The notes under the pieces: generated by a model
Seen by the model: the letters and a program-made list of their open reading frames with translations, nothing else
Database searches by the model: none
Told to the model about the DNA's origin: nothing
Source of the DNA: a virus
Length of the DNA stretch: 64,000 bases
IMG/VR virus record: IMGVR_UViG_3300017767_002783
Coordinates: 1,249 to 65,248 of that record
Direction: 5' to 3' (one strand)
Shown: positions 38,021-60,262 of the stretch, piece by piece
Layout: every line of letters starts with the position of its first letter
Position numbering within the stretch: position 1 is the first letter of the stretch
Position numbers and translations under genes: made by a program

Positions 38021-38809
38021 ATGATAAAATTGGTAGATTTACTAAACGAAGGAGTTCGAGATCCAGGTATCTTTAAAGGTATATTCTTGGCTGGAGGACC
38101 TGGTAGTGGTAAATCCTATGTTGCAAAGGGTTTATTCGGTATTCCTGAAAAAATAAATGTTTCCAAGTATGGATTAAAAATGGTTAATCAAGACCAAGAA
38201 TTAGAAATGCTTTTAAAGAAATTTTATGGGCAAGATTCATCCGTAGATTACCTTAACATTCAAAAGTTTCCTGACGAATTATTTAAACAACTTACAGATC
38301 CAGATTATGCAGGATATAGTGGTTTACGAGGTTATGCTAAATCACTAAATAAACAGAGAATGGCACAATACTTGGAAGGTCGTTTGGGCGTTATTATCGA
38401 TGGAACTGGTCATAAATTTAAATCCGTACAAAAGAAAAGAAAAAGATTGATAGATTTAGGTTATGATACTTATATGGTTTTCGTAACAACCTCATTAGAA
38501 GTTGCACAGCAAAGAAACGAAACAAGACCACGAGTATTACCAGCAGATGTGGTAGAGGATAGTTGGAAAGATGTTCAGAAAAATATGGCATTCTTTCAAG
38601 GGTTGTTCGGTGGTAGTAATTTTTTAATTGTGGATAACAATAAACACTTAGAACCAAAACAGGCAGAAAAGAAATTTAAGATGTTAGTTGGTCAAGGAAT
38701 TGATAAGTTTATGAAAAAACCAGTTAAAAATAAAATAGCAAAAAAATGGATGAAACAACAAAGTTTAGTACCAAAAAAAGATTTAAAGCAAATGTTAAAA
38801 AGGAGTTAA
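38021..38809 (+). CDS. P-loop kinase (zeta-toxin/AAA_33/PNK-like) with MIKLVDLLNE leader
   Basis: Walker A LAGGPGSGKS, VIIDGTG, lid RNETRPR; GGAG precedes ATG 38021. Confidence 0.8.
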   Translation: MIKLVDLLNEGVRDPGIFKGIFLAGGPGSGKSYVAKGLFGIPEKINVSKYGLKMVNQDQELEMLLKKFYGQDSSVDYLNIQKFPDELFKQLTDPDYAGYSGLRGYAKSLNKQRMAQYLEGRLGVIIDGTGHKFKSVQKKRKRLIDLGYDTYMVFVTTSLEVAQQRNETRPRVLPADVVEDSWKDVQKNMAFFQGLFGGSNFLIVDNNKHLEPKQAEKKFKMLVGQGIDKFMKKPVKNKIAKKWMKQQSLVPKKDLKQMLKRS

Positions 38810-38810
38810 A

Positions 38811-39113
38811 ATGGCGTTTATAATAGTAGAACCTTGTGTGGGTACTTGCGATACAGCTTGTGTAGAAGTTTGTCCTGTTGATTGTATTCACGGACCTGAT
38901 GACAGAGAAGGTAGAGGAGATGAGGCAAAGGCAGATGGATTTAATCCTGACGGAAAACAACTTTACATCGATCCAGAAGAATGTATCGATTGTGGGGCTT
39001 GTGAGCCTGAATGTCCAGTTGAGGCGATTTTTGAAGAAGATGATGTTCCTGAAGAATGGGAAAAGTATACAAAATTAAATTATGAATTTTTTGGTAGAGA
39101 GTTCAATGATTAA
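38811..39113 (+). CDS. Dicluster (7Fe/8Fe, FdxA-like) ferredoxin
   Basis: CVGTCDTACVEVCPVDC and CIDCGACEPECP; AGGAG SD at 38801-38805. Confidence 0.92.
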   Translation: MAFIIVEPCVGTCDTACVEVCPVDCIHGPDDREGRGDEAKADGFNPDGKQLYIDPEECIDCGACEPECPVEAIFEEDDVPEEWEKYTKLNYEFFGREFND

Positions 39114-39465
39114 ACTTGTGGATATACTTAATGAGTATTCACATAACAACGGTTCAACGGGCGGTTCGGATGCGGGAGAACCCGAAACAGGTTGGACGAA
39201 TCCACGAAGAAAACGAAAGTTGGGAGTGGATAGTAGTAAACCCGAGCCTTGGTTTGAGAAGGGTAGATATACTCAACTTCATTTTCCAAAGGCGGATAAT
39301 CCATATGATGCAGCAAAAGGTAGAGGTGATGATAAGAGTATTCAGAGAGTTCAAGTGATAAAGAGAGTTATTAATACTGGACTTAAATATGAAGATTTTT
39401 ATGACACTATAGCAAGTTGGGATAAATATGGTGGTCAAGATTATTCAACGGATTTTGAGAAATAG
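39106..39465 (+). CDS. Hypothetical protein with MIKLVDILNE leader
   Basis: Start moved to ATG 39106, overlapping the ferredoxin stop. Confidence 0.6.
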   Translation: MIKLVDILNEYSHNNGSTGGSDAGEPETGWTNPRRKRKLGVDSSKPEPWFEKGRYTQLHFPKADNPYDAAKGRGDDKSIQRVQVIKRVINTGLKYEDFYDTIASWDKYGGQDYSTDFEK

Positions 39466-39466
39466 T

Positions 39467-40381
39467 ATGATTAAATTAAAACAATTATTAACAGAAGATT
39501 GGTTAGACGATAATAAGTGGTATCCTGCTCATACAAGAAAAACATTAGATAATATAAAATATGGGGATAAGATAGCACTCTATCCTAAATTACACGAAAA
39601 GATGTTTGGTAAAATACCTATTAGTTCATTTCATGTTACTAATCCAGACCACATAAAAACAATTGGTAAGATAATAGGTAAGAAAAAATCCATATCAACA
39701 TTCACTCGTGCTAACAATGACTCACCACTTGCTAAAGGTAGAGGTATTCAAACAGGTACGGGTGGAGTTATATTTTATGTTAGGGGAAACTTACTTGCTA
39801 AACGATACATGGACTTCGATACAGTACCCGATAAGACTGGTCGTAGATGGATAGAATCACATTACATAACTGGTGATAGAATGATTTTTAAAAATGCTAT
39901 GAAAAGAGCTGGATTCTTTAAGAAACTTGAAACAATGGAAAATAAAATTAGACGAATAGATGCGGTATTTCATGACTTATGGATGACAGATGATGAAATT
40001 GAATATGATGAATATAAAAAATTAACAGTAAAAGAAGCAGGACCTTATATTAGTAAATTTATAAAAGAGTGGTTTGATTGGCAAAACAAGTGGTTGGTAA
40101 AGAATAAATCAAAAATAAAGAAGAATCTTATAAATCCAGAAGATAAACCATCGGCATGGTGGAATGAAATTCTTATATATAATCCTAAGATTATAGATGT
40201 TTTTGTAATGGAGAGGATTACAAGGGATGGATATTGGATGCAACAATGGGGAGACAATAAACCAGGACCTTGGCAAAAAGAAATTCTCAAATATGTCCCC
40301 AAGAACAAAATAACAATCGGTACACCAGCAAAATTTAGAAAATGGTACAAGGACAGAGAAGGAATAATAGACCAAGTATGA
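39467..40381 (+). CDS. Hypothetical protein with MIKLKQLLTE leader
   Basis: Start moved to ATG 39467, one base after the upstream stop. Confidence 0.65.
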   Translation: MIKLKQLLTEDWLDDNKWYPAHTRKTLDNIKYGDKIALYPKLHEKMFGKIPISSFHVTNPDHIKTIGKIIGKKKSISTFTRANNDSPLAKGRGIQTGTGGVIFYVRGNLLAKRYMDFDTVPDKTGRRWIESHYITGDRMIFKNAMKRAGFFKKLETMENKIRRIDAVFHDLWMTDDEIEYDEYKKLTVKEAGPYISKFIKEWFDWQNKWLVKNKSKIKKNLINPEDKPSAWWNEILIYNPKIIDVFVMERITRDGYWMQQWGDNKPGPWQKEILKYVPKNKITIGTPAKFRKWYKDREGIIDQV

Positions 40382-41964
40382 TTTATCTTTCTAATTTAAT
40401 TCCGTTGAATGAGTATTCTAAATTTAGGCTCAACATCCCCTCTGACATCAGGAAGATACACAAGCTTTTTAAGAAAAACAAGAAAAAACTTTTTGTTGTG
40501 GGTGGAGCAGTAAGGGATGCAATATTAGGAAAGAGTCCAAAAGATTTTGATTTAGCCACCGATGCTAAACCCGATGAGGTATTACAAATAGCAAAAAAAG
40601 GTGGATTGAAAACCGTAGAGGTTGGAAAACAATTCGGTGTCGTGATAGTTGGTGGACACGAAATAGCAACATTCAGAAAGGATATTGGTAAAGGGAGACG
40701 CCCAAGTTCAGTTGATTATACCGACATCGAGGGTGATGTAAAAAGAAGGGATTTGACCATAAATGCGTTGTTCTACGATATGGATAGGGGTGAAATTGTA
40801 GACTTGGTTGGTGGTATAGCAGATTTAAAAAAGAAGAAGATTCGAACCGTTGGAAATGCTGTCGAAAGATTTGATGAAGATCCGTTAAGAAAGATGAGGG
40901 CATTAAGATTTCAAGGTGCACTCGGTGGTAAGTTAGGTAAGGAAACTGAAAGGGCACTAAGACAGAATCCAAGTCTTAAAGGTGTGAGTAAAGAAAGAAT
41001 CAGAGATGAGTTTGTCAAGTCGATTAGAAAGGCAAAATCACCCAAGAGGTATTTACAGCTTGCTGATTCGTTAGGATTTACAAAACAGATATTACCTGGA
41101 TTACAAGTTAAGATTCCATACATAAATGAAAACGATTATATTTTATTTTTAGCTTGGATTTTACGAAAAAATGATGTAAATTCAATAAGGAAATTAAATG
41201 GTTTAGCCTATCCTACTCAAGAAATAATTGATATTCAGTTTTTAAATTCATTACAGAATTTTAAACCTGAGAATATTTTTTTGATTAAAAAGTTTCAAGA
41301 AAAGACCAAATTGAGTAAAGGTCAAATTCTTAAATGGGGTAAGTACATTGGAAAAGATTTTAAAAAATTAATTAGATTTAAACTATCGGTAAGGGGTAGT
41401 GATGTTTCAAGTGATTTAAAAGGAAGGGACATCGGTAAAGCAATACAAAATATGGAAAAAGATAAATTCTTAAATGAAATAGCAGTTCGGAAAAAACCGA
41501 AGAAATTCAAAGACATTTATAACGCGTTACCAAGTGACTTGAAGAAACGCGTGTATAATCTAAAAAACTACGACCAGAGGAGAGATGCACATCCTGAAGG
41601 TAATGTTTTAAAACATACTATTGCTGTTACGAATAGGGCACTTAAAACAGGTGATATAGACTTCGCTCTATCAGCATTGTTTCACGATATAGGAAAAGAC
41701 TCAACTGCTAAATTACATCCAAAGAAAGGGTTTTGGACTCATTATGGACATGAGCATGTATCAGCTAAATTGGTTAAGAAATACGCCAAGTGGATAAAAT
41801 CAATGGGTGGTAATCCACTTGATATTTATTGGATAGTAAAACAACACATGAGAATGAAAGTATTTGATAAGATGAAATGGACAAAACAAGAAAAGATGAA
41901 AAAATTTAGAGCATTTGATAAGTTAAAGAAATTTACAACCTTCGATAAAGGTGGGAGAGTATAA
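40378..41964 (+). CDS. cca: Class II tRNA nucleotidyltransferase (CCA-adding / poly(A) polymerase family) with C-terminal HD domain
   Basis: VGGAVRDAILG, DFDLAT, RRDLTINAL, EDPLRKMRALRF; C-terminal HPEGNVLKHT and LFHDIGK; ATGA overlap start. Confidence 0.85.
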   Translation: MIYLSNLIPLNEYSKFRLNIPSDIRKIHKLFKKNKKKLFVVGGAVRDAILGKSPKDFDLATDAKPDEVLQIAKKGGLKTVEVGKQFGVVIVGGHEIATFRKDIGKGRRPSSVDYTDIEGDVKRRDLTINALFYDMDRGEIVDLVGGIADLKKKKIRTVGNAVERFDEDPLRKMRALRFQGALGGKLGKETERALRQNPSLKGVSKERIRDEFVKSIRKAKSPKRYLQLADSLGFTKQILPGLQVKIPYINENDYILFLAWILRKNDVNSIRKLNGLAYPTQEIIDIQFLNSLQNFKPENIFLIKKFQEKTKLSKGQILKWGKYIGKDFKKLIRFKLSVRGSDVSSDLKGRDIGKAIQNMEKDKFLNEIAVRKKPKKFKDIYNALPSDLKKRVYNLKNYDQRRDAHPEGNVLKHTIAVTNRALKTGDIDFALSALFHDIGKDSTAKLHPKKGFWTHYGHEHVSAKLVKKYAKWIKSMGGNPLDIYWIVKQHMRMKVFDKMKWTKQEKMKKFRAFDKLKKFTTFDKGGRV

Positions 41965-43694
41965 TGGATAAATTAACAAGAGAATTGATAAGAGATTTAC
42001 TACCCGAAGAAGATAGACCTAAGATTAAAAAGATTGTAGGAATCTATGGTGGTAGGTATCAACCATTTGGCCCACATCACTTAAAAACTTACAAGTGGTT
42101 AAAGTCAAAGGTAGATGATGCTTACATCACCACATCAGACATCAAAAAACCACCAAAACACCCTATGAATTACAGAGAAAAACTTCGTCATATGGTAAAG
42201 ATGGGTGTTCCTAAGAATCGTATTATAAAGGAAAAAGTTCCATTAGTGGCAAATAATGTGCTAAAAAAATACGATTCCGAGACTACAGCCGTGATATATA
42301 TATTTGGAGCTAAGGATGCTGGTAGATTGGCAGGTGGTAAAAAGAAAAGTGGTGGTTTATCGTATTTCCAAGATTATAGAAAACACAAGAATAATCTAAA
42401 AGGATATGAGGAACACGGATACTTTATGGTAGCTCCACATCAATCAGTTAGGGTTGGTGGAAAAGAAGTTAGTGGAACGGTAATGAGAGAATTACTCGGT
42501 TCACCTAAAATAGATGATAAAGAAAGACCTAAATTATTTAAACAGGCATTTGGTTATTTCGATAAAGGTGTTTATCAAATGATGACCAACAAGTTTAGAA
42601 AGTTATTTGAGATCAAAGAAAATTTACTTACAGAAAGATTAGTAGCCGCTAGAAACAAAGGACACTTGAAGAATGGTGGTAAGACAGCACTAACCACAGG
42701 TGGAATAATTTCAAAGTTTAAAGGTAGGGGGGATATATCGGACGCATTTAGTTTTGCTATGAAGGATTTGGAAAAGGCCATCGGTTCTCTTTCTGAAAAA
42801 CAAAGAAACAGAATATTCAAGAATGGTAAGGCTTGGATGAATCTTGAGGTTATGTGGCCAAAGTCATCTAATGTGATAAATTATGACAAGGCAGAAATCG
42901 TATTTCACGGAGCACTCGAATATGATGATGAAGGAAATGCAATTGGAGAGGTCAAAGATAGTGCAAGAATGTTAGCTGGTATGATTAAACAAGTCAACCA
43001 AAACATACAGAAACGATATAAGATTGGAAAACCTAATTTTTTAACCGTACCTAAACATCAAAATTTTGAAAAGAAGAAAAAGTATTTTATAAATAAGTTA
43101 AATAGATTACAGAAACAATATAACTTAAAAGATAGTGATTCACTTTCAGTATATCACCAAACCTATTGGGAAGAATTTATATTTAATGCAGCAAAACAAC
43201 ACGGATTTACAATTCCAAAGGCACCATTAAAAAAATTAACTAAAAGATGGGCATTTTTTGATAAGTCGTATAAAGTTCCAATGATTAAAAAAGATTTTAA
43301 AAATCATCCTGAATTTTTAGATTGGGTATTGACTACGGATAAAGTAGACCACGCAAAAATGGTTAAAAAGAATATGAAACCATTTGAGGAATTGTTCTTT
43401 GAAGTTGGTGCAGAAATAATGACAAATGTAAGTGGTTGGTTAGCAGCAAATCCTGACTCTACGGTTCAACGAGTAAAGAAACAATTAGATGCAGCAATTA
43501 AAGATGTGAGAAGTAAAAAGGATTTGAAAAAACTTAACACATTAAAATTACAATTGGATAAATTAAATAAGATTGGTGGTCTGAAGGCAATAGTTCCAAG
43601 TGAAGGAATAGTTTTTAAATACAACGGAAAGACATTTAAATTTACAGGAGCATTTGCACCTATTAATCAAATAACAGGATTGATGACATTCTAA
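41964..43694 (+). CDS. Cytidyltransferase-like (HIGH-type) domain fused to the C-terminal half of a ligase-like domain
   Basis: YGGRYQPFGPHH, HPMN, GAKDAGRL, SGTVMRELL; after LLTE comes RLVAARNKGHL...MNLEV...IVFHG...PSEGIVF...KFTGAFAPINQ. Confidence 0.65.
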   Translation: MDKLTRELIRDLLPEEDRPKIKKIVGIYGGRYQPFGPHHLKTYKWLKSKVDDAYITTSDIKKPPKHPMNYREKLRHMVKMGVPKNRIIKEKVPLVANNVLKKYDSETTAVIYIFGAKDAGRLAGGKKKSGGLSYFQDYRKHKNNLKGYEEHGYFMVAPHQSVRVGGKEVSGTVMRELLGSPKIDDKERPKLFKQAFGYFDKGVYQMMTNKFRKLFEIKENLLTERLVAARNKGHLKNGGKTALTTGGIISKFKGRGDISDAFSFAMKDLEKAIGSLSEKQRNRIFKNGKAWMNLEVMWPKSSNVINYDKAEIVFHGALEYDDEGNAIGEVKDSARMLAGMIKQVNQNIQKRYKIGKPNFLTVPKHQNFEKKKKYFINKLNRLQKQYNLKDSDSLSVYHQTYWEEFIFNAAKQHGFTIPKAPLKKLTKRWAFFDKSYKVPMIKKDFKNHPEFLDWVLTTDKVDHAKMVKKNMKPFEELFFEVGAEIMTNVSGWLAANPDSTVQRVKKQLDAAIKDVRSKKDLKKLNTLKLQLDKLNKIGGLKAIVPSEGIVFKYNGKTFKFTGAFAPINQITGLMTF

Positions 43695-43957: not shown

Positions 43958-43960
43958 AGT

Positions 43961-44565: not shown

Positions 44566-44596
44566 TGTGTGAAACTATATATATCGGAGAAAATAA

Positions 44597-44857
44597 GTGA
44601 TTAAAATGAAGAAAATATTAGAAGAAAAGGTAGACCTTGATGATATTTCTATGAATCACCAAAAATTACTAAGGGTTGGAAGTAATTACATTTATAAGGC
44701 ACGAGATGGGAAACTTTGGTATGAACTTGAGGATGATATTAAAAAGAGTAAGAATAGAACTTTAATGAGATACTTTAAAAAATATGATGAAGCTCGTCTT
44801 AAACTTCAAAATGCTGGTGCAATGTTAACCAGGGCATTTGATTTGGAAAAAAGATGA
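44597..44857 (+). CDS. Hypothetical protein with MIKMKKILEE leader
   Basis: GGAG SD, GTG start. Confidence 0.6.
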   Translation: MIKMKKILEEKVDLDDISMNHQKLLRVGSNYIYKARDGKLWYELEDDIKKSKNRTLMRYFKKYDEARLKLQNAGAMLTRAFDLEKR

Positions 44858-45408
44858 TTAAATTAAAAGAATTAATAGTAGAACGAATTGTAACACATAG
44901 TGACTTTCATAAAGTCATAAATATGGCTAAAAAGGCAACTGGCGCTAAACCTAAAATACCATCAAAAACAATAAAACTTTGTAAAGAAGTAATGAAAGAT
45001 GGTTTTCATAAATTAGATTATAGAGGTAAGCCTGGTAAGAAAAGACAACCTACTAACTTAATGTATCAGTATTACGCTTATGTACAAGGATGGGGACATT
45101 CTAAATACAAAAATGATTGGGATTGGAGAAGTGATAAAGGTGATAAGATTTTAAATTGGGTTCAAACATCAGGATATAATGATGGTATATTTGATTATGA
45201 TTATTTAAAGTACCATGTAAATACTGATATGCAAGCATCGCAAGTTGTAGGAAATATCAGACCTGGTTCAAAAGATGAAGAACCAGCTTACTATTTAGTT
45301 AAAGATTATTTAAATAGTTTTAGTGCAAGACGAGGTGGTAGAGATGAGGATATGTTAGTTGCTAAAGTTCAATGGTGGTTAGATAAAAACAAAGTTGAAA
45401 CAAGATGA
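44854..45408 (+). CDS. Hypothetical protein with MIKLKELIVE leader
   Basis: ATGA overlap; leader motif. Confidence 0.6.
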   Translation: MIKLKELIVERIVTHSDFHKVINMAKKATGAKPKIPSKTIKLCKEVMKDGFHKLDYRGKPGKKRQPTNLMYQYYAYVQGWGHSKYKNDWDWRSDKGDKILNWVQTSGYNDGIFDYDYLKYHVNTDMQASQVVGNIRPGSKDEEPAYYLVKDYLNSFSARRGGRDEDMLVAKVQWWLDKNKVETR

Positions 45409-46154
45409 GAGATTACTTAAAAGAATTTAGTGATGATGTCATTGGTGATTTTTTAGTTGAGAATGATATTAAAGATATTTTAAATGAGGCTGGTTCGGCA
45501 ACAAATAATGCACCAACTGATGACGGGCCACCTACATTTTACAAATCTTTGGGACAATACAAATCCGAGTCTGAAGATTGGATACAATCATTACAGAATG
45601 ATTTAGGTTGGAAAGTAATTGATTATATACTAAGTGATGGAGCAATGGATCCAGAAGAAGATTACACTATGTCACATAGAGCAACAAATCCAATATCTCA
45701 CGGAGAGGTAAAAAAGTATAAAAAAACTTTACGGAATGTAATGGATAATTTGGGTTGGAAAGTCATGAAGTGGATGGGAGTTGATAAAGACCAACAAATG
45801 GCCGGCCCACCTATAGCATCAGGAATTGATGCTAAAACTCGTAAAGAAAATAACGAAGCAGATACTGATTTAGCGGCAAAGAAAACAAAAAAGAAATTTA
45901 AAGGTGGTCGTCCAAGACTTCATGTTGAGAAATATTCACCACTTTCAAAAGATTGGTGGGATGATGAACTTAGAGAATTAATCACAGAAGGTGGAGCATA
46001 CGGACATATGGCACATCCTTTTGATGATAAAAATTTAACATTTAAAGATTTAAAAAATATCATAGAAAGAGGTTTAGGTGGTCAGTTAGATAGGGAAGAT
46101 AATGTAACTGAAAAACTTGATGGACAAAACCTTATGATAAGTTGGAGAAATTAG
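45405..46154 (+). CDS. Modular protein ending in the N-terminal half of a ligase-like nucleotidyltransferase domain
   Basis: After LITE: GGAYGHMAHPF...TEKLDGQNLMISWRN*, with a KxDG motif-I-like sequence at 46110-46124. Confidence 0.6.
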   Translation: MRDYLKEFSDDVIGDFLVENDIKDILNEAGSATNNAPTDDGPPTFYKSLGQYKSESEDWIQSLQNDLGWKVIDYILSDGAMDPEEDYTMSHRATNPISHGEVKKYKKTLRNVMDNLGWKVMKWMGVDKDQQMAGPPIASGIDAKTRKENNEADTDLAAKKTKKKFKGGRPRLHVEKYSPLSKDWWDDELRELITEGGAYGHMAHPFDDKNLTFKDLKNIIERGLGGQLDREDNVTEKLDGQNLMISWRN

Positions 46155-46840
46155 TGAACATATTCGAAAAAGGATTGTGGAAATTAATTAACGAAGCTTC
46201 ACCAACGGGTACTTCAGGATATGGTGGATCTGGAATAACCACAGGAGATGCATGGCCCGATGGTTTATTTACCAAAAGAGGTGAAAGACGATATGTAGGA
46301 CCTGCAAGTTTAACTCGTGGAATGCAACAAGTTGATTTTCCAGCATCAGATAATATCTATGGGGGTCCTGATAGTCAGAATAATGAAAGACGGGCAAAAA
46401 GAGATGCAGGTAAACTTTACAAATATTTAAGTGATCCCGATGGTAATTCAGAAATTAAATCTGATGAGTTAAGAGATGACACACCACCATTATCACCGAG
46501 ACAAAGAACTTATGGAATACACGGATTTCACAGAAAACAAGAATATACCATTCCACCTGAAACAGCAAATTTTGTAACAACTGCTCAAACTTTAATTAAA
46601 CCAACAACACCACCAGAGGGAACAGAAAGTGGTGGAGTACCAGCAACACCTGAACCTGGTTCTAAGGAAATGGGAAGTGTAAGTGGATATAGACAAGCAC
46701 AGCAAGGTGGAGAATCGGTATTTGCAGGTAATAAAAAATTATGGAATAAATGGAAAGACCACAGAATAATGGGTGCAGTTAAAGGTAGAGAATGGAAAGG
46801 TGGTAAGTTAGTTGATTTGTTACCTAAAGGAGTTAAATAA
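46154..46840 (+). CDS. Gly/Pro/Thr-rich hypothetical protein (MNIFEKGLWKLINE leader)
   Basis: GTG start overlapping the upstream TAG; the track's TTG at 46142 is also possible. Confidence 0.55.
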   Translation: MNIFEKGLWKLINEASPTGTSGYGGSGITTGDAWPDGLFTKRGERRYVGPASLTRGMQQVDFPASDNIYGGPDSQNNERRAKRDAGKLYKYLSDPDGNSEIKSDELRDDTPPLSPRQRTYGIHGFHRKQEYTIPPETANFVTTAQTLIKPTTPPEGTESGGVPATPEPGSKEMGSVSGYRQAQQGGESVFAGNKKLWNKWKDHRIMGAVKGREWKGGKLVDLLPKGVK

Positions 46841-47127: not shown

Positions 47128-47129
47128 AT

Positions 47130-51589: not shown

Positions 51590-51612
51590 ATGATGAATTA
51601 TTAGAAGTTTTT

Positions 51613-51621
51613 ATATTTATA
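51613..51621 (+). promoter_or_regulatory. ATATTTATA candidate promoter motif
   Basis: Intergenic, upstream of AGGAG at 51642-51646. Confidence 0.45.
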
Positions 51622-51647: not shown

Positions 51648-52520
51648 ATGAATATGGCCCAACGTGTCAAACACTCGAAAATAAAGAATACAGGAATACT
51701 CTTTGAGTTAATATCTCGTCAAATCACCGTAGATATAATGAATGGTGATGAAAAGAGTAAATCAGTAGAAATGCTAAAAAAATTCTTTAATGAGAATACA
51801 GAACTTGGTAAAGAGAATCAACTCTATCAAGTTTTACTTAAAGAAAATTACAATTCTACCCGCAAGGCAGAAAAATTAGTAGAGGCTGTCTTAAAGTCAA
51901 GAGAAAAATTACAGAATAAAAGACTGCGTACTGAAAAATATAATCTTATTAGAGAGATTAAATCAAATTATAACGTAGAGGATTTTTTTAGAGCAAGAAT
52001 ACCTAATTATAAGGTTTATGCTTCTATATATAAATCATTTATTAGTGAAACTACACCAATATTTGATCCAGTAAATGAAGTTGAAAGTAACTTTTCTATC
52101 ATAGAACACATTACTCGTAATAAAGTTAAGTCTAAAAATAAAGATAGTAAGGTCATTTCTGAATTTAAGAACGAAGATAAAGATTTAAGATTACTTTCTT
52201 ATCAGTTAATGGTAGATAACTTCAACGGTAAGTATAAAAAGTTAAACTCTATGCAAAGAAATCTTCTAAAAGAGTACATTAATAACATTTCTAATACTAA
52301 TTCTCTTAGAGAATTCGTAAATGGTGAAATTATAAAGGTAAAACAAATTCTAAGTAAGATTTTACCTAAAGTCTCAGATGATATCACAAAAATTAAATTA
52401 TCGGAGGCTATAAATCAAGTAGACTCTATAACAAAAGGTAAGATAGTTAAGGATAAACAAGTTGTTGCACTAATGAGGTATTATGAACTTATAAAGGAGT
52501 TGAGGAATGTCGCGTCCTAA
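51648..52520 (+). CDS. Conserved hypothetical head-module protein
   Basis: KHSKIKNTGILFEL; sits between portal and protease; SD present. Confidence 0.7.
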   Translation: MNMAQRVKHSKIKNTGILFELISRQITVDIMNGDEKSKSVEMLKKFFNENTELGKENQLYQVLLKENYNSTRKAEKLVEAVLKSREKLQNKRLRTEKYNLIREIKSNYNVEDFFRARIPNYKVYASIYKSFISETTPIFDPVNEVESNFSIIEHITRNKVKSKNKDSKVISEFKNEDKDLRLLSYQLMVDNFNGKYKKLNSMQRNLLKEYINNISNTNSLREFVNGEIIKVKQILSKILPKVSDDITKIKLSEAINQVDSITKGKIVKDKQVVALMRYYELIKELRNVAS

Positions 52521-53223
52521 CGGAGATACACTTCTTAATTTAATTCGTGAGTTAATTAAAAACGAATTGGATGAGGCAAATTCTACTGCAACAGCCGGTG
52601 GTGAATATCAAACACCACTTGCATTTAAAGGTGAGAAAAGAAAGGCGGGTAAGAAAAAGAAAAAGGCTGGATTTGATGGTGGACACCACGATCCGACCAT
52701 CGGTACTGATAATTTCGAACCAGAGGACCCTAAGTTAAGAAAAGAATCGGTAGTAAGTGAAGAAAAGAAAAATTCTAATAATCTTTACTTAGAATTTACT
52801 GATGCTCTACAAGATTTCAATGACAAATGTATTAAGATAGCTGATAAAATCACTAAATTAAAAGGTGATAAGACCGATGGAAAAATTTTAATGAAAAATG
52901 TTAAAAAACATCTTATACCACTTAGTAAGTTAATGAATAGTTGGAACAGAGGAGCTCAAAGTAATCCACATTTAACTACTGAAGGTAGATATCACGCTTG
53001 GAGAAATGATAATACCTTAACACCCAAGCAAAAAATTGGAATGGCAATGAGAGAGACTCGTGATAATCTATCAGAGTTAGAACGAGTTGTCAAGTATAAT
53101 GTAAAATTAAAAAATGAGTTAAATGTTGACTCAAGGTCATATTGGAAGAATACACATAAGGCTTTAAGTAAAATAAGTGAGAGATTAGTTAATTTAGCTA
53201 ATAAGGTTGGACAACTACATTAA
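52507..53223 (+). CDS. Hypothetical modular protein (ELDE|ANSTATAGGEYQTPLAF)
   Basis: LxE-punctuated modules; operon context. Confidence 0.65.
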   Translation: MSRPNGDTLLNLIRELIKNELDEANSTATAGGEYQTPLAFKGEKRKAGKKKKKAGFDGGHHDPTIGTDNFEPEDPKLRKESVVSEEKKNSNNLYLEFTDALQDFNDKCIKIADKITKLKGDKTDGKILMKNVKKHLIPLSKLMNSWNRGAQSNPHLTTEGRYHAWRNDNTLTPKQKIGMAMRETRDNLSELERVVKYNVKLKNELNVDSRSYWKNTHKALSKISERLVNLANKVGQLH

Positions 53224-53228
53224 AGATT

Positions 53229-53417
53229 ATGACATTCGAACAGAACAAAAAGTCTTTTATGGACTCTTTGTTCAGTATTTCAACGATGCTAAAGAGATGG
53301 CATACTGAAATACAGAGCAAAGATGTTGATAAAAACTATATGATTGAAAAGTTAACTGCGTGGATTAAAAAACTTGAAGAATTAAGACACGATATTATGA
53401 TGAGGAAAGATAAGTGA
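53229..53417 (+). CDS. Small hypothetical protein
   Basis: 62 aa, fills the gap, GTGA overlap with the next gene. Confidence 0.55.
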   Translation: MTFEQNKKSFMDSLFSISTMLKRWHTEIQSKDVDKNYMIEKLTAWIKKLEELRHDIMMRKDK

Positions 53418-53752
53418 TAAAACTCGGAGATTTATTAACAGAGGCAAGTATTTCGGAAGAAATGGGAGAGCTAAAACTCTACATTGACAACGATTCGAGT
53501 CTATATAGACAAAGATACATGCCAATATTGAAAAATTTGTCAAAAAAGAAGAAAAAGGGTAATTATCGTAAAACATTAGCCCAAAAAGCATTCATGTATC
53601 TAATTGACGATGGTGCAAAACGATATGTTAGGTCATACGGTGGAAATCACTTAGATGTTTTCCCAAAAAGACAAAGAAAGCAGTTAGCAAAGGATTATGT
53701 AGAAGAATTTGAACAAATTTTTAAAAATCAAGAATATGATTTTATGAGATAG
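53414..53752 (+). CDS. Hypothetical protein with MIKLGDLLTE leader
   Basis: GTG start; ELKLYIDND..LY.Q...NL.KK..KG.Y block. Confidence 0.65.
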   Translation: MIKLGDLLTEASISEEMGELKLYIDNDSSLYRQRYMPILKNLSKKKKKGNYRKTLAQKAFMYLIDDGAKRYVRSYGGNHLDVFPKRQRKQLAKDYVEEFEQIFKNQEYDFMR

Positions 53753-53761
53753 GAGATTAGC

Positions 53762-54562
53762 GTGTCAAAATTTAAAAAAATAATTAAAGAAGATTGGTGG
53801 AGTGATTTAAGTCCTGAAGGACAGGCAAAATACTTAAAAAGTAATCCTAATTCGAAAAAAGCACAATCGGCAAAAAAGAAAAAGAAAGATGAACCATCTG
53901 CAGCACCAAGTTGGACTGCTGATGATATGGATTCTATTTTTGGAACAAGAAATCAAAGTGGTGGGGGATGGCAAAAACCTCGTAATGATGCTGATAGAGC
54001 AGCTGATGATGAAGCAGATGATATGAAAACTCAAGACGCACAAGATTCAAGAGATGCGGAAGATAGAAAAGATGCAGGTATAAAACCAATTAAAGACGAT
54101 AAAGATACACAAAGAATGGGATCCAGTGTATTAAGTAAAATCGGTGGTACTCAAGATCCAGATAGATTAGAATTACAAGGTACACAAGAAGCAGATAATG
54201 GTCAAACTATTATTCAATGGAAAGACAAAGAAGATGGAATGATGGTGGGTGTAGATGCACAAGGTAACATTTATCAAGATGGTGATAGGCAAAATTATGG
54301 TATACAAGTTAGCACACAAAGTGATGTGTTTGGAGATGACCAAAATGCACAATTATTGTATAAACAAAAGAAAGCCCGTGAAACTGGAGGTACAGATCCA
54401 TATACAGGTAAAAAATATGATAAACCAACTGGAAGAACTGGAAAAGAATTAGACCAAGAAACTCTTACAATAGATGGTAAAGAATATCGTAAAATCAATG
54501 AAAGTGTAGAATCAAAACCAAAATATCAATTTTCAGAATTCTACCAAAGATTAAAGAGATAG
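53762..54562 (+). CDS. Low-complexity acidic hypothetical protein with MSKFKKIIKE leader
   Basis: AGGAG SD, GTG start; D/Q/G-rich body. Confidence 0.65.
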   Translation: MSKFKKIIKEDWWSDLSPEGQAKYLKSNPNSKKAQSAKKKKKDEPSAAPSWTADDMDSIFGTRNQSGGGWQKPRNDADRAADDEADDMKTQDAQDSRDAEDRKDAGIKPIKDDKDTQRMGSSVLSKIGGTQDPDRLELQGTQEADNGQTIIQWKDKEDGMMVGVDAQGNIYQDGDRQNYGIQVSTQSDVFGDDQNAQLLYKQKKARETGGTDPYTGKKYDKPTGRTGKELDQETLTIDGKEYRKINESVESKPKYQFSEFYQRLKR

Positions 54563-54572
54563 GAGTAATATA

Positions 54573-55193
54573 ATGTCAAAACAATTAATAGTAGATTATT
54601 TACCTTTTGAGATTTCAAGAGAACAGATAAACGAATCAATTAAACAGAATAATGGTCGTTTAGTGGTTCATGGTGTATTGCAGAGGTCAGATGCTAAGAA
54701 TCAAAATGGTAGAGTCTATCCACATGAGATTTTGGCAAGAGAATCGAGTAAGTATGATGAGGGTTTCATCAAACAGAAACGTGCAATGGGTGAGTTAGAC
54801 CATCCTGAATCATCAGTAGTTAATTTACAGAATGTATCTCATAATATTACCGAAATGCATTGGGAAGGTAAGAACTTAGTCGGTACGGTCGAGGTTCTTG
54901 GAACACCAAGTGGTAATATATTAACAGAATTATTTAAAGCAGGTATTAAGTTGGGTATCAGTTCTCGTGGAATGGGTTCAGTTCAACCAATGAGTGAGGG
55001 TGATGGACAACAAGTAGGAGATGATTTCGAATTAATAGCTTTTGATTTCGTATCAAATCCATCCACACACGGAGCTTTCTTATATCCTATGAAAGAAAGT
55101 GTTGGAAACGAAATACCAATTACCGAAGGTAGAACCTGTGGTAAGTATTGTAAAGTTGAAAGTATTATAAACGACATAATTAGAGGAGAGTAA
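54573..55193 (+). CDS. gp21: Prohead maturation protease (T4 gp21-like)
   Basis: [31 protein letters not shown]. Confidence 0.93.
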
Positions 55194-55194
55194 A

Positions 55195-55677
55195 ATGGCC
55201 AAACTAACAAAATTAATAAGTGAGAGTAAAGTCCTCAAACGAGAGTTTGGTGAAGCACTTCCTACTTTCAGTAGTGTAATGAAAAAACACCAAGAGAATA
55301 AATTTAAAGAAGATTTAGATGCTGTCGGTAAAGAGGATGATGATGTGGATAACGATGGTGATTCAGATAAAACTGATGATTATCTAAAAAATCGTAGAAA
55401 AGTAGTTGCTAAAGCTATCAAGAAGGATTCTGTAAAAGAAGATGCAATTCGTAAGCTTGTTCGTAACGAAATTAAAAATATAGTAGAGGCTGATGAGTTT
55501 GACCAACCTGTACCTGCACAAATAGAAAGATATTTAAAGAAATTTCTTAACGCAGTACAAGGTGCTAGACTTAATCGTAGAAGGGTAACAGCAATACTTG
55601 GTCGTGTTGTTAAACAGCTAAATATAGAACCAAGTGAATTGATGAGATATGTTAGAAAAGTCAAAAAGGGATTATAA
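55195..55677 (+). CDS. Hypothetical protein with [10 protein letters not shown] leader and DxDxDG-like motif
   Basis: AGGAG SD; [14 protein letters not shown]. Confidence 0.65.
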
Positions 55678-55865
55678 TGAATAAAGCTGATACATTTAAA
55701 ATGAACAAAAATTGGAGAAAGTTTAGACTTCAAACTAATGAAGAGCAAAAAACAGAATCTAAAATTAAATCCATTGTCAATTCAGTAAATGAACAAAATT
55801 TAAAGAACTTATCGGAAGAAGAATTAAATAAATTCTACACCGAGGTTAAAAAAATTATAAAATAA
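55677..55865 (+). CDS. Small hypothetical protein
   Basis: TAATG coupling at both ends. Confidence 0.55.
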   Translation: MNKADTFKMNKNWRKFRLQTNEEQKTESKIKSIVNSVNEQNLKNLSEEELNKFYTEVKKIIK

Positions 55866-55918
55866 TGAAAGATGGCCACCATACTTGACCATATAGTGGT
55901 GAAGAACATCCAGTTTGG

Positions 55919-57313
55919 ATGAAACACGAGGAAGAACCTTTGGACGATTACAATAAGCGTATGAAAGAATACATTAATGATATAGTCAAACAAGAAATTG
56001 TTAGTCTCGGTGAGGAAAAGAAACGAGATTACAAAAAAGAGTATGCTAAATATGGTTCATCCACTAAGGCTAAAAAATACAGAGCAGAATTAAATAAGTA
56101 CAATCGTAAGAAAGGTACTTATGGAAATGGTGATGGTAAAGATGCCTCACACAAAGGGGGAAAGATAGTGGGATTTGAATCACAATCTAAAAACAGAGGA
56201 CGAGCAGAAAAAAGTCGTTTGAAGAAAGAAGATATAAAAGAGAAATCAATACCACACGCAAATCCAAATTACAATATGGAAAAGACGATGCAAAAATTAG
56301 CAAAGTCATTAGGTATAAAATCCGTTGTGAGTATGTATACTGGTAGTGGTAGTTTGAGTTATTTTTTAGATGATGATAGAGAAGCAAAGAAACTACAAAA
56401 ATTTTTAAAAAGGTCATTCAAGAGAGTTCGACTAATACCATTAGACAAATCAAAAGGTGATGACGCAAATTGGGTAGTAGCGGCAGATATGTTAGGATTT
56501 GAATCCATAAATGAATCGGAACAAGATAAGATAAAACAATATTTGATGAAAAAAGGTGATAATGAAAAAGACGCCACAGAAAAATTAAGATATTACGATA
56601 TGGTTACAAAGATGTACAAGAAAGCCAACTCCACCAAAAAGGCTGAAATAATGTCATCATTATGGGCTAATGAAAATGTAGCACCTAATCACGATGGTAA
56701 ATCAGCACCATATGGTAGTGGGTATGAAGAAATGGACGAAGGTAGGTCTATAAAAGAAAATCTAATACCATTTTACAAATACATGGGTGATTTCTACGGA
56801 AAAAAAGGTATTTATCCTGATAAGAAAGGTAGAGATTTGAAAGTTGGAGATATAAACAAAGCCCTTTCAGTTTATCTCAAAAAGTATTCAAATGACACTT
56901 TCACGGGCGATAGTATTGATAGAGAAAGAATCCGTGATATTCTAATCAAGATGAGAAAGTTAGATCCTGATTACTCTAAAAAAGAATCCGTAAACGAGGG
57001 TGTTAGTCAATCTCAGGCACAAGAGATAATGAAACAACTTGGTGGTAGAAAATTTGAAATGTTAATGGGTGTGAAATCAAAGGGTATCGGTAAAGATGGA
57101 TTAATCCTACATATCGGTAGAAATTCAAAGAGAGTATCACACATCATTATTGATTTAGACAGAGGTAGAGATTTATACAACTTAACATTTGGAAAGATAT
57201 ACAAGTATCAATTCAAGGTCATAAAGAAACTTAAAGGTATATATGTAGACCAATTACATGATATGATTGAAAAGTATACTGGATTATACACAACATTTGG
57301 GAGTAGAAGATGA
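55919..57313 (+). CDS. Multi-module protein with a degenerate HNH-like module; may start at 55865 through an in-frame TGA
   Basis: RDYKKEY...DASH...S.NRG (HNH-like); modules separated by INE/VNE/IKE; final KQLGGRKF...DQL...YTGLY module. Confidence 0.65.
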   Translation: MKHEEEPLDDYNKRMKEYINDIVKQEIVSLGEEKKRDYKKEYAKYGSSTKAKKYRAELNKYNRKKGTYGNGDGKDASHKGGKIVGFESQSKNRGRAEKSRLKKEDIKEKSIPHANPNYNMEKTMQKLAKSLGIKSVVSMYTGSGSLSYFLDDDREAKKLQKFLKRSFKRVRLIPLDKSKGDDANWVVAADMLGFESINESEQDKIKQYLMKKGDNEKDATEKLRYYDMVTKMYKKANSTKKAEIMSSLWANENVAPNHDGKSAPYGSGYEEMDEGRSIKENLIPFYKYMGDFYGKKGIYPDKKGRDLKVGDINKALSVYLKKYSNDTFTGDSIDRERIRDILIKMRKLDPDYSKKESVNEGVSQSQAQEIMKQLGGRKFEMLMGVKSKGIGKDGLILHIGRNSKRVSHIIIDLDRGRDLYNLTFGKIYKYQFKVIKKLKGIYVDQLHDMIEKYTGLYTTFGSRR

Positions 57314-57777
57314 AAATATCAAGACTAAGAGAAATAATTAAAGAAGAAGTTCAAAGTGTTCTTACAGAGGGAACTCGTTGGTTGGTTGGTATTGAACAAC
57401 CAAATGGTAAAATTCTATCCACATACGGACATTACGATGGTTATCCTGAATGGGCAGGTAAACACTTGAAAAAGTATTATAGAAATCCGGCAGTAGTAAA
57501 ACAACTTTTAAAACTTGGAAGTGCAGGAATTTCTACAATTGGTAAGAAGATTAAAGGAAGTAAAGACCATTCATTTGAAAAACCTGAAAAAGATGTAACC
57601 GTATTTTATGGTAGAGATAGAGGTGAAAAGGGTAGAATGACAAGTAATTGGAGAAACAGAGACGCTGTAAAATTTGATAGTGGTGAGGAATATGCTTATA
57701 TCTACAATATGAAAGAGAAGAAATGGTATTACAAATCACGATATTCAAACCCAAGAGATTGGACGGAGTTAAGATAG
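57310..57777 (+). CDS. Hypothetical protein (TR..GI...G.I.S.YGHYDGYP type) with MKISRLREIIKEE leader
   Basis: ATGA overlap; HYDGYP motif. Confidence 0.65.
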   Translation: MKISRLREIIKEEVQSVLTEGTRWLVGIEQPNGKILSTYGHYDGYPEWAGKHLKKYYRNPAVVKQLLKLGSAGISTIGKKIKGSKDHSFEKPEKDVTVFYGRDRGEKGRMTSNWRNRDAVKFDSGEEYAYIYNMKEKKWYYKSRYSNPRDWTELR

Positions 57778-58178
57778 TGAAAAAATTAAAAGAAATATTA
57801 CACGAGAGTAAGTACCTTAAAAGAGAGTTCGGTGATAAATTACCGACATTGAATAGTGTGACGAAACAACATCAAGATTCTAAAGAACCAATTAACGAAT
57901 CTAAACTTCCTCAGTTTGGAAAACTAAGTGATGTATCCGATTATCACCGTAAGTGGGGAGATATGTTTAACGAGTTAGAAAGATTTAGAGATTACGGCCC
58001 AACAGAATCCGATATGTATGATTGGAATGATAGAAGTCATTACAACAATGTAACAAAAGAATTTCACGCTCATATGGATAAGGTAGGTAAGAAACTCAAT
58101 TCCGCATTAAGAGATATGGAAAATTCTTGGAAGGTGTGGGATACAATTTTAAAGAAACATCGTAAGAAAGACAAATAA
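57777..58178 (+). CDS. Hypothetical protein with MKKLKEILHE leader
   Basis: GTG at 57777 overlaps the upstream TAG; N-terminus resembles that of 55195. Confidence 0.6.
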   Translation: MKKLKEILHESKYLKREFGDKLPTLNSVTKQHQDSKEPINESKLPQFGKLSDVSDYHRKWGDMFNELERFRDYGPTESDMYDWNDRSHYNNVTKEFHAHMDKVGKKLNSALRDMENSWKVWDTILKKHRKKDK

Positions 58179-58191
58179 TTAGGAGAAAGTA

Positions 58192-58542
58192 ATGGCAAAA
58201 TTAGATGCATATTTAAACTTAGATTCAGCAACTGGAAGTTTATGGACACATTATGATGGGGCAAAGTTCAATCAGTTAACTGGTTCAGCATTAGATACAC
58301 AATTAGGATCATATGGGGCATTTGTATCAAATTCCGTCTATACTGGTCAGTATTCAGCATCAGATGGTTGGTCAGATACAAACAAGCAAAAATTAGCAGA
58401 ATGGTGTAGTGAAACTGATTTAGTAACTTGGACACATAAAAATAATATTAGAGGTGTAACACCACCAGCAGTACCAAGATATCAAGAAGCACACACAGCT
58501 TCGATATGGTTAGAGAGCTGGGATAATAACGATAATGTATAA
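58192..58542 (+). CDS. Hypothetical protein
   Basis: AGGAG SD; 116 aa. Confidence 0.6.
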   Translation: MAKLDAYLNLDSATGSLWTHYDGAKFNQLTGSALDTQLGSYGAFVSNSVYTGQYSASDGWSDTNKQKLAEWCSETDLVTWTHKNNIRGVTPPAVPRYQEAHTASIWLESWDNNDNV

Positions 58543-58546
58543 TTAG

Positions 58547-59563
58547 ATGCCTTTTAAATCTGAAAAACAAAGAAGATGGATGCACGCTAACAAACCTAAA
58601 ATGGCTAAAAAGTGGGAAAAAGAGGAGGCTCTAAAGGAAAAGATTCGTGGTATTATTAAACGAGAATTAGAGGCAACAAATTCTTCTGCAATACCAGTTT
58701 ATAAAACACCTATGGCATTTAAAAAATCTACATTTAAGGCAATTGGTATAGATGATGAAGATGATAGTGATGAATTATTAGGTGGGTTAAAGGATGTAAG
58801 AAAGAAAAACTCTAAGAAAGATAAAGAACAAAAAAAAATGAAAGAAATAAAAGACCACGAAGGTAAGATGGCAAAATCACAATTGGAAAGATCTATGAAG
58901 TATTCTAAGATGATTTACAATATGATACAGAATGTCGATAAGGGTAAGGGAGTTGAGTTTCCAGCTTGGGTTCAATCCAAACTAACTAAGGCAGAAGATT
59001 ACTTACAGAGTGTTTTTAATTATTTAGATGGTAAAGACGGATTAGAGGATAAATTTCAAGAGGGTGTAACCATAAAAACAATTGTAGAGGGTGTTAGAGT
59101 AAGAAATGGTGAATCAGCCAAACCAGGTATGTGGGAAGTTTTTGACAACCATTCAGGTAAAAGTATTAAAGTGGTTAAAACAGCATCATCAGCTACAAGG
59201 TTAATGAATAGGTTGATGAATAGTGGTCAGTATAACGAAATTGCAACCAAATGGGTAGGTGAAACAGTAGATGAAGCTATGCCTATGAAGATGAAACCAT
59301 TTAGTTCATCAGAGGCAAGACAACTTGTTAACCAAGACATTAAAAAGATGTCAAAACATTTAGGTAAAGCATCACAACAATCTATTAAACTTATGATGAA
59401 TGGTGTAAAGGGTGGTAAATATACTGCAATGGATATATCAAGAGGTTTAAAAGAAGGACCCGCCGGTAGAACACATTTCGGAGAACTTGGTTTTCTACAA
59501 CAATTGTGGAACAAAGTTCGTGATGGATTTAGAAGATATTCAAAAGAAAAAAAACTCAGTTAG
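58547..59563 (+). CDS. Multi-module hypothetical protein (MPFKSEKQRRWMHANKP...; HEGKMAKSQL...WVQSK)
   Basis: Several short modules separated by xxE junctions. Confidence 0.65.
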   Translation: MPFKSEKQRRWMHANKPKMAKKWEKEEALKEKIRGIIKRELEATNSSAIPVYKTPMAFKKSTFKAIGIDDEDDSDELLGGLKDVRKKNSKKDKEQKKMKEIKDHEGKMAKSQLERSMKYSKMIYNMIQNVDKGKGVEFPAWVQSKLTKAEDYLQSVFNYLDGKDGLEDKFQEGVTIKTIVEGVRVRNGESAKPGMWEVFDNHSGKSIKVVKTASSATRLMNRLMNSGQYNEIATKWVGETVDEAMPMKMKPFSSSEARQLVNQDIKKMSKHLGKASQQSIKLMMNGVKGGKYTAMDISRGLKEGPAGRTHFGELGFLQQLWNKVRDGFRRYSKEKKLS

Positions 59564-59566
59564 TAT

Positions 59567-59575
59567 ATATTTATA
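59567..59575 (+). promoter_or_regulatory. ATATTTATA candidate promoter motif
   Basis: Intergenic, 21 nt before ATG 59597 (AGGAG at 59584-59588). Confidence 0.45.
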
Positions 59576-59596
59576 GTTGATTAAGGAGAATCAAAA

Positions 59597-60262
59597 ATGG
59601 CTAAATTAAAAGATTTAATTAAAGAAAACGCAATGTTAGGTGGAGTCGTATCTAAACCTGCATTCTCAAATCTCAATATGGGATTTAGAACACAAAAAAG
59701 TTCCACAAAACTTACTGATATAGTAGAGGATGTTTACGGACAATCTACTCAAAAAGTAAATGTAAAGGAATTTGTACAAGAAATTGGACAATACAATTCC
59801 TATGGTAATGAGATTTATCGTGAAGGTAATCTTAAAGAATTAGCAAATAAACTTTCTCGTTTAGCAGAAACTGCAAAACAACATACTTTACAAGAAACCG
59901 AAGATTGGTTTGATAAAATCACGGTAAATCGTAATATGAAAGAACTAACTGGTCTCTCTGGTCAATTTAAGAAAGTTGCTACTGAGGCACAGGCATTACA
60001 AGAAAGAATGAGTGGTCTATATGAAGATATGGGACATATTCTTGGTAGATATTATGAAATTAATGAATCTAATCCTACTGATACTAACGAAAGTAATGGA
60101 GTGGAGGCAGACACAGTAAAAGAAGGTTCTTACGAAGATTTCTTTCAGTCAGCAATGAAAAAATTTAATATAAGTTCACCAGATGAACTTGATGATGATG
60201 AAAAAGTAAAATTTTTCAATTATGTAGATAAAAATTATTCTGCAAAATCAGAAACAGACTAA
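59597..60262 (+). CDS. Hypothetical head-associated protein with MAKLKDLIKE leader
   Basis: Coiled-coil middle; C-terminal Y..FF..A.KKF...SP..L...FFNYVDKNY module. Confidence 0.65.
   Translation: MAKLKDLIKENAMLGGVVSKPAFSNLNMGFRTQKSSTKLTDIVEDVYGQSTQKVNVKEFVQEIGQYNSYGNEIYREGNLKELANKLSRLAETAKQHTLQETEDWFDKITVNRNMKELTGLSGQFKKVATEAQALQERMSGLYEDMGHILGRYYEINESNPTDTNESNGVEADTVKEGSYEDFFQSAMKKFNISSPDELDDDEKVKFFNYVDKNYSAKSETD

Follow-up and report, generated by a model that had tools for sequence, protein, structure and literature searches.

A short N-terminal leader shared by diverse proteins of an uncultured T4-like phage lineage as its probable capsid targeting sequence and propeptide

In a 64-kb stretch (hereafter the window) of the 65.8-kb IMG/VR viral contig IMGVR_UViG_3300017767_002783, from an uncultured marine T4-like phage, the proteins of ten genes begin with a common ten-residue leader, three genes carry longer variants of it and two or three carry looser ones. 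We consider it highly probable that this ten-residue peptide is this lineage's version of the capsid targeting sequence (CTS) and propeptide of phage T4, in which case the proteins behind it would, by analogy with T4, be packaged into the head, cleaved from the leader and injected into the host. An earlier note on the same DNA had taken the leader for such an address and cleavage signal, and that reading draws support from the statistics of the leader, from variable presequences that end alike before constant mature starts, from the encoded head machinery and from the published virion proteome of Agrobacterium phage Atu_ph07. The mechanism is known from the T4 CTS and the T4 protease gp21; the present lineage adds the number of tagged families, the leader classes, an FGxPLPT module, fusions and candidate RNA-end-processing enzymes, while new here are the analysis of constant mature starts and a second look at the Atu_ph07 proteome.

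The leader and the genes that carry it

The expression ^M.K[LIMFV]..[LIVM][LIVM].E, applied to all 6925 ATG, GTG and TTG codons in the six frames of the 65.8-kb contig, matched exactly the ten core leader genes and none besides. From proteome amino-acid frequencies, 0.007 core N-termini would be expected among 72 gene starts (Poisson P about 1e-28), with the 66-kb fragment that the contig represents being the basis for any frequency in this phage. Internal copies of K-h-x-x-h-h-x-E (h, hydrophobic) numbered 3 against 2.1 expected, and this lack of internal enrichment indicates that the motif is an N-terminal signal and not a compositional habit. The core leader was carried by 0 of the 37 genes in the sugar-metabolism (glycan) island of the window compared with 10 of the 35 other genes (Fisher P = 3e-4). 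The Leu4 residue is encoded by TTA, TTG, CTT, CTC and CTA, drawing on both Leu codon families, and the DNA upstream of the leader genes is unconserved apart from the ribosome-binding site. These synonymous codons and unconserved flanks point to selection on the peptide, and the codon evidence rules out a DNA repeat as the explanation. Most leader-gene starts lie 8-14 nt past a GGAG-type Shine-Dalgarno sequence or overlap the preceding stop codon. The helical hydrophobic moment of the leaders exceeds that of other N-termini (0.39 vs 0.27, P = 2e-8), and the mature parts are basic in 8 of the 10 core leader proteins.

All 13 N-termini listed in the earlier note were found where it had placed them, the Glu at residue 10 and the hydrophobics at residues 4, 7 and 8 that it described for the core set are captured in all ten genes by the single expression above, and its remark that no glycan-island gene has the motif agrees with the count of 0 in 37. 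Its further statement, that nothing relates the proteins beyond the Glu, needs one exception: when the mature parts were compared all against all by BLASTP, 55195 and 57777 alone were related, through residues 11-36 (65% identity). A relaxed scan for h-x-x-h-h-x-E in the first 30 residues recovered the variants 46154 and 57310, together with weaker leader-like starts at 41964, 45405 and 52507. The genes concerned are listed here by window coordinates, with GTG marking those that start with this codon.

38021..38809, +: MIKLVDLLNE, then a P-loop kinase (AAA_33 / Zeta-toxin type)
39106..39465, +: MIKLVDILNE, then a 109-residue protein without family match; orthologues in relatives retain the leader
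39467..40381, +: MIKLKQLLTE, then a 294-residue basic protein without family match
40378..41964, +: variant 12-residue leader MIYLSNLIPLNE, then a CCA-adding enzyme (PolyA_pol head, RNA-binding and HD domains)
41964..43694, +: looser candidate leader MDKLTRELIRDLLPE (weak), then a cytidylyltransferase-like protein
44597..44857, +: MIKMKKILEE (GTG), then a 76-residue basic protein
44854..45408, +: MIKLKELIVE, then a 174-residue basic protein
46154..46840, +: variant 14-residue leader MNIFEKGLWKLINE (GTG), then a 214-residue protein
52507..53223, +: weak candidate N-terminus ...TLLNLIRE15, not confirmed
53414..53752, +: MIKLGDLLTE (GTG), then a conserved 102-residue basic protein, just upstream of the protease gene
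53762..54562, +: MSKFKKIIKE (GTG), then an acidic 256-residue protein beginning DWWSD
55195..55677, +: core leader, then a second module, then a variable body
57310..57777, +: variant 20-residue presequence MKISRLREIIKE...LTE, then a phrog_1987 domain beginning GTRW
57777..58178, +: MKKLKEILHE (GTG), then the FGxxLPT module, then a variable body
59597..60262, +: MAKLKDLIKE, then an acidic 211-residue protein

The variant leader at 40378 differs from the core in its spacing, and relatives of the 46154 protein have the canonical leader MKKLK[DN]L[IL]KE. A peptide similar to MDKLTRELIRDLLPE of 41964, MDKLTEFLVKPFLTE, precedes the kinase in some relatives. The leader is present in 20 of 20 orthologues of 53414, whose product is a candidate prohead-core protein. 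For the kinase 38021, a profile search against solved structures gave a weak match to L-seryl-tRNA(Sec) kinase (E = 0.008), and the AlphaFold2 model, built from a shallow alignment, is poor, with a mean predicted local distance difference test score of 56. Pfam searches assigned neither 45405 nor the C-terminal part of 41964 to a ligase or any other family, and thus lend no support to a split ligase here. A GGAYGHMxHPFDD.. block at 45990-46154 occurs also in many relatives and is followed, in the window, by a KxDG-like EKLDG.

The stretch common to 55195 (55225-55302) and 57777 (57807-57884) is a conserved block of about 25 residues directly behind the leader, with the consensus S-K-[WY]-x-x-R-x-[FW]-G-[DE]-x-L-P-T-[LF]-x-x-[VY]-M, and it occurs in many relatives too, where it is often closed by a further [MI]-x-E before unrelated bodies of up to several hundred residues. 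A 36-position profile of leader plus module matched 661 cluster representatives (50% identity clustering) at E <= 1e-3 and 195 at E <= 1e-10, with the match beginning at the N-terminus in 139 of the 150 best. The proteins concerned fall into at least 35 unrelated mature clusters, almost none of them with a Pfam domain. We suggest that this FGxPLPT module is a second docking element. The small leaderless gene 46840-47127 encodes ..GDTILGGRFKNKK..GMPTINGRKV.. and recurs in relatives as a module inserted between a leader and the CCA-adding enzyme or kinase, which may make it a mobile unit from which presequences or polyproteins are built.

Presequence junctions, head machinery and the T4 precedent

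The kinase family of 38021 has over 7900 metagenome matches, and among the 120 best homologues [LIVM]xE stands immediately before the start G..D.GIFK in 118, with the exact core leader in 97 of the 120. Longer kinase forms consist of the leader, an extra domain of about 90 residues and ..GSILNE, followed by the same G..D.GIFK start. In cultured T4-like phages the kinase is preceded by MIPFILKE (Pelagibacter phage HTVC008M), MKTFAELQE (Methylophilales phage Melnitz), MTTFKEYLLE (Ralstonia phage RsoM2USA) or, internally, ..SEVTE (Atu_ph07). Orthologues of the CCA-adding enzyme 40378 have at least 8 presequences, including MIKLRTLLPLNE and forms with an inserted small domain, and the conserved mature start is in every case immediately preceded by [LI]xE. 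Relatives of the phrog_1987 domain (57310) show three presequence types, each ending in [LI][NT]E before GTRW, and the DWWSD protein (53762), which has the leader alone in the window, has in relatives the leader plus an FGxPLPT module ending in ..LKE ahead of an identical DWWSD start. A presequence that varies and yet ends in [LIV]-x-E before a constant mature start, as seen in these four families, provides comparative support for putative cleavage after the Glu.

The head genes that bear on such a cleavage are the following.

54573..55193, +: prohead maturation protease, Peptidase_S77 (T4 gp21 family)
60697..62058, +: very acidic scaffold-like protein with 13 [LI]xE sites, directly upstream of the capsid gene
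62098..63714, +: major capsid protein, Gp23 family (Pfam 4e-78), with a propeptide ending LIDE64/S (slash, cut position)

The protease assignment comes from Pfam PF03420 (3e-26), PHROG 207 (9e-51) and PDB 5JBL (1e-13), and the motifs around the catalytic His and Ser align with those of 5JBL. The protease has [LI]xE sites of its own near both ends (INE21 and ITE185), and sites near the protease ends have likewise been discussed for gp21 (PMC9026906). The capsid propeptide aligns with that of T4 gp23 in such a way that I-D-E falls at the T4 cut position, which reads IDE/S in relatives, VSE/A in Flavobacterium phage immuto and LKE/A in the 484-kb uncultured phage LR756508; the motif, [LIV]xE with S or A behind it, thus persists although the sequence itself changes. 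The scaffold-like protein 60697 parallels T4 gp22 in position and composition and has no family match.

The T4 CTS is formed by the first ten residues of internal protein IPIII, MKTYQEFIAE, which are sufficient for packaging, and T4 internal proteins are basic (PMC8442874). Suppressor analysis of IPIII assigned targeting mainly to residues 4 and 7 and processing to residues 8 and 10, and gp21 cleaves after L/I-x-E (PMC9026906). T4 gp24 loses a 10-residue peptide (PMC9958956); as read from the T4 genome this peptide is MAKINELLRE, which satisfies the window expression and resembles MAKLKDLIKE of 59597 and the leader of 55195. The kinase leaders of Melnitz (MKTFAELQE) and RsoM2USA (MTTFKEYLLE) are intermediate in form between the window leader and the T4 CTS.

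The window system thus shares with T4 an N-terminal peptide of about ten residues common to unrelated proteins, with key hydrophobics at 4, 7 and 8, Glu at 10 and an L/I-x-E end, as well as an encoded gp21-family protease and gp23-family capsid protein, tagged genes that flank the protease as do gp67, gp68 and gp22, and a cargo made up mainly of small, basic, fast-evolving proteins with an enzyme among them (Alt in T4). It differs in leader sequence (MIKLKDLLxE here, MKTYQEFIAE in T4) and in the far larger number of tagged genes, with 10-16 in 26 kb and hundreds of metagenome clusters. It further differs in having more than one class of leader, the FGxPLPT module, polyprotein-like fusions that contain internal sites, and a cargo with candidate RNA-end-processing enzymes, and the system is known here from sequence alone. 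In contrast to T4, where gp24 and core proteins are processed, no gp23/gp24 paralogue is tagged here and the bodies are unrelated to T4 core proteins. A published review has suggested that CTSs may serve T4-like phages in packaging a variety of proteins (PMC9026906).

Two other systems invite comparison. In phiKZ (gp175), 201phi2-1 and SPN3US (gp245), a diverged gp21-type protease cuts many head-internal proteins after the Glu of a three-residue motif, and giant phages have large internal protein sets (PMC9026906). The giant-phage motif is S/A/G-x-E, however, the propeptides vary and are of considerable length, and a uniform leader at the N-terminus has not been described in these phages. The polyvalent proteins of phages and conjugative elements (Iyer et al. 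2017, PMC5512222) resemble the window set in that effector enzymes, zeta-toxin-type kinases and ADP-ribosyltransferases among them, are predicted to be both packaged and delivered with DNA, and relatives of the window phage likewise fuse several modules per polypeptide. By contrast, polyvalent proteins have two to fifteen effector domains while the tagged proteins of the window have one recognisable domain or none, with multi-module fusions found only in some relatives, and the window set is defined by a short address-and-cleavage peptide that is absent from the description of polyvalent proteins (PMC5512222).

The leader in relatives and in the Atu_ph07 virion

A scan of relatives, which the earlier note had proposed as a check, showed that the core leader recurs on the coding strand. 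Among 222 IMG/VR contigs whose protease is 74-98% identical to that of the window, 80 were analysed, and these contain 128 coding-strand and 3 other-strand matches, all three of the latter in 20-codon junk open reading frames (ORFs). The consensus is MIKLKDLLxE and the mature parts behind it form 17 unrelated clusters. Leader genes cluster from about 1.2 kb upstream to 5 kb downstream of the protease gene, and again 8.5-10 kb upstream, with none among the terminase and portal genes in this survey of positions around the protease. In five larger contigs the leader DNA pattern matched 3-10 times each, always on the coding strand, as compared with 0-1 matches for a reversed-pattern control. The leader is also present in immuto (e.g. 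MIKLIDLLTE), where predicted protease substrates start at 24977, 25506, 81481, 102250, 103322, 109824, 111667 and 113144 of MW353176, and in LR756508. Our literature search found no paper describing the leader MIKLKDLLxE in this lineage.

Atu_ph07 is a T4-core jumbo phage with a gp21 homologue and a 490-kb genome (MF403008.1), for which an electrospray ionisation tandem mass spectrometry table of virion proteins has been published (PMC6102473, Supplementary Table S5). GenBank proteins were assigned to Atu_ph07 gp numbers by exact molecular-weight matches. Its gp53 contains a homologue of the window kinase, with Zeta_toxin/AAA_33 at residues 261-403, and is represented in the virion table by 31 unique peptides. 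This 87-kDa protein peaks in gel band 9, where gp127 and gp701 of about 21 kDa also peak, and the gp53 stretch from VTE252 to LTE458 would be about 23 kDa. The proteins gp53-gp63 all begin with M-[RK]-[WL]-x-x-L-x-E. The DNA pattern for the 8-residue form M-[KRQ]-[WYL]-x-x-L-x-E gave 17 matches in 490 kb (0-1 for the reversed-pattern control), 16 of which are annotated gene starts (gp53-63, gp381, gp394, gp408, gp482 and gp487, at 39.5-50.6 kb, 290373, 295047, 304780, 350502 and 353336 of MF403008.1) and one a 21-codon junk ORF. Although the virion table covers only about a fifth of the proteins, it includes all 16 leader-bearing ones; the Atu_ph07 CCA-adding enzyme gp18, which has no leader, is absent from it. 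The Atu_ph07 paper does not discuss leaders or processing (PMC6102473). Pfam searches did not support an Alt-like ADP-ribosyltransferase reading of the gp55-62 family, the one trace being a sub-threshold ART-PolyVal match on gp381, and protein 39467 of the window showed no similarity to the gp55-62 family. For RsoM2USA, proteomics covered the most abundant bands only and is uninformative on its kinase homologue.

Because of the re-read Atu_ph07 proteome, our analysis suggests that short LxE-ending leaders are a general and under-appreciated rule across T4-core phages, jumbo phages included.

Proposed mechanism, alternatives and gene context

In the mechanism that we propose, the leader would form a short amphipathic helix whose hydrophobic face (residues 1/2, 4, 7 and 8) docks the new protein on the scaffolding core, around which the gp23-type shell assembles. 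The S77 protease 54573, once activated, would then cleave after Glu10 at [LI]-x-E, and would also cut the capsid propeptide after LIDE64 and the acidic scaffold at its 13 sites. Leader and scaffold fragments would exit the head and the mature, mostly basic proteins would remain with the DNA, probably to enter the host at infection. Longer modular presequences would combine the leader with the FGxPLPT module of about 25 residues, or with an extra small domain, in units bounded by [LIM]-x-E. The T4-type head-address and cleavage reading of the earlier note is in keeping with the S77 protease and the gp23-family capsid propeptide ending in [LI]xE, with tag positions 4, 7, 8 and 10 being those mapped in T4 IPIII (PMC9026906), with the variable presequences that end in [LIV]xE before constant mature starts, and with the presence of 16 of 16 Atu_ph07 leader proteins in the virion table.

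Several observations weigh against this reading. The case for this phage and its close relatives is a comparative one, and the brevity of the leader precludes a demonstration of homology to the T4 CTS. In a Lys/Ile/Leu/Glu-rich proteome [LI]xE carries little information, which makes sites outside the leader weak evidence. The ligase-like GGAYGH block is preceded by [LI]xE here and by LLM in a sister clade, so this "boundary" may be part of the fold and the fifth case is ambiguous. Basic isoelectric points are common in AT-rich proteomes, and the figure of 8 in 10 covers the tagged parts alone. Atu_ph07 is distant from the window lineage and has a different leader sequence, many of its 16 leader proteins are paralogues, and its virions were purified with polyethylene glycol (PMC6102473). 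Finally, a heuristic search in relatives did not place the exact form of the promoter-like motif described below immediately ahead of leader genes.

Among other explanations, we regard it as improbable that the leader is no more than a propeptide, removed by the protease from assembly proteins which are themselves degraded or expelled, with no address function and no cargo retained or injected. Such a role would suit the tagged genes that flank the protease where T4 has gp67, gp68 and gp22, the 53414 family, which is conserved like a structural gene, the T4 core proteins that likewise begin with LxE-ending peptides, and the lack of an enzyme domain in most tagged proteins. However, it does not sit well with a tagged P-loop kinase and a tagged CCA-adding enzyme, for which no scaffolding role is plausible, with a kinase homologue found in mature Atu_ph07 virions, or with mature parts that make up 17 or more unrelated families of fast turnover like those of T4 internal proteins; for part of the set at least, this explanation is countered by the enzymes among the cargo and by the Atu_ph07 virion data. 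The shared N-terminus is very unlikely to serve instead a modifying enzyme, as in ribosomally synthesised and post-translationally modified peptides, or to act as a degron or a translation-initiation enhancer. The large gene 33753 may encode a radical-SAM-type enzyme, which would bear only on the first of these roles. Codon 3 is invariantly AAA, and A/T-rich early codons are known to favour translation, but an effect on translation leaves Glu10, the hydrophobics at 4, 7 and 8 and the synonymous Leu codons unexplained. The [LI]xE junction is, moreover, retained when the leader is internal in fusion proteins, the tag accompanies the S77 protease locus across 80 contigs, the majority of which lack the glycan island, and the T4 and Atu_ph07 data tie such leaders to virions.

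A destination other than the head interior, be it membrane, periplasm, tail or baseplate, is more doubtful still and in our view scarcely credible. The N-terminal helix is amphipathic and some leader-like genes of immuto adjoin baseplate or tail genes, but the leader has no hydrophobic core and no signal-peptidase site, it ends in a head-protease motif, and the genes cluster with head and not tail genes in this lineage. A signal peptide in particular is ruled out by the missing hydrophobic core.

Beyond the targeting and cleavage role of the ten-residue peptide, we tentatively raise the possibility, itself rather unlikely, of a modular multi-tier presequence code by which this very abundant marine lineage would load hundreds of families into the head, including RNA-end-processing enzymes that would be injected to repair tRNAs cut by host defence nucleases before phage expression. 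The parts of such a code would be the 10-residue address peptide, an optional FGxPLPT module of about 25 residues and optional small domains, all with [LIM]-x-E bounds, and the RNA-end-processing set would comprise a PNK/PSTK-like kinase, the CCA-adding enzyme, which has an HD phosphoesterase domain, and perhaps also a ligase-like protein and a nucleotidyltransferase. A literature search brought up no account of a tRNA nucleotidyltransferase packaged in virions. If the tag works as in T4, the injected proteins of a large, abundant group of uncultured marine phages would become predictable from their genes. Injected proteins are a phage's first weapons against host defences, and most of those proposed here are without known function. 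With the tag, foreign proteins could also be loaded into phages that infect marine Bacteroidota-type or other hosts, a use that the T4 CTS already has in E. coli.

The window has about 30% G+C and all of its genes are on the + strand, with the glycan island at positions 1-38 kb and small unknown genes and a T4-like head module from 38 kb onward. The following features lie among or near the leader genes.

38811-39113: 2x[4Fe-4S] ferredoxin gene, leaderless, flanked by two leader-bearing genes
48119: large terminase
49709: portal
60277-60540: ribosomal protein S21 homologue, inside the head module between leader gene 59597 and the scaffold gene

That a leaderless ferredoxin gene stands among leader genes indicates that the tag is gene-specific and not a regional property. 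The closest cultured neighbours of the capsid protein are in Microcystis phage Mel-JY01 and Flavobacterium phage immuto (53% identity), and its identity is 56% to LR756508 and 37% to Rhodothermus phage RM378. A megablast search with 10 kb of the window against cultured phages gave no match.

A promoter-like motif, TATATTTAT[AT], has 5 + strand copies in the window, 5 of 5 intergenic.

51612..51621, +: TATATTTATA, ahead of the packed block 51648-59563
37979, 59566, 60559 and 63780, +: other copies of TATATTTAT[AT]

These copies precede 38021, 51648 and 59597, as well as the scaffold gene and the one that follows the capsid gene. The exact form TATATTTATA occurs in the 80 relatives 89 times on the coding strand vs 0 times on the other. 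It is reverse-complement-like to the T4 late promoter TATAAATA, strand-specific and intergenic. The T4 late promoter itself was tried and rejected, with 20 copies found in the window vs 15.7 expected. The motif TATATTTAT[AT] looks like a head-operon promoter. Given that the protease and five leader genes lie within the tightly packed block 51648-59563 behind the motif, co-expression of leader genes with head genes is likely.

No ribosome-binding site is obvious in the 53-nt gap ahead of ORF 55919 (55865-55921), for which an upstream start with an in-frame TGA has been proposed. The last part of the glycan island holds the gene 33753-36677, which encodes a 974-residue protein whose N-terminus may resemble B12-binding radical-SAM (S-adenosylmethionine) enzymes.

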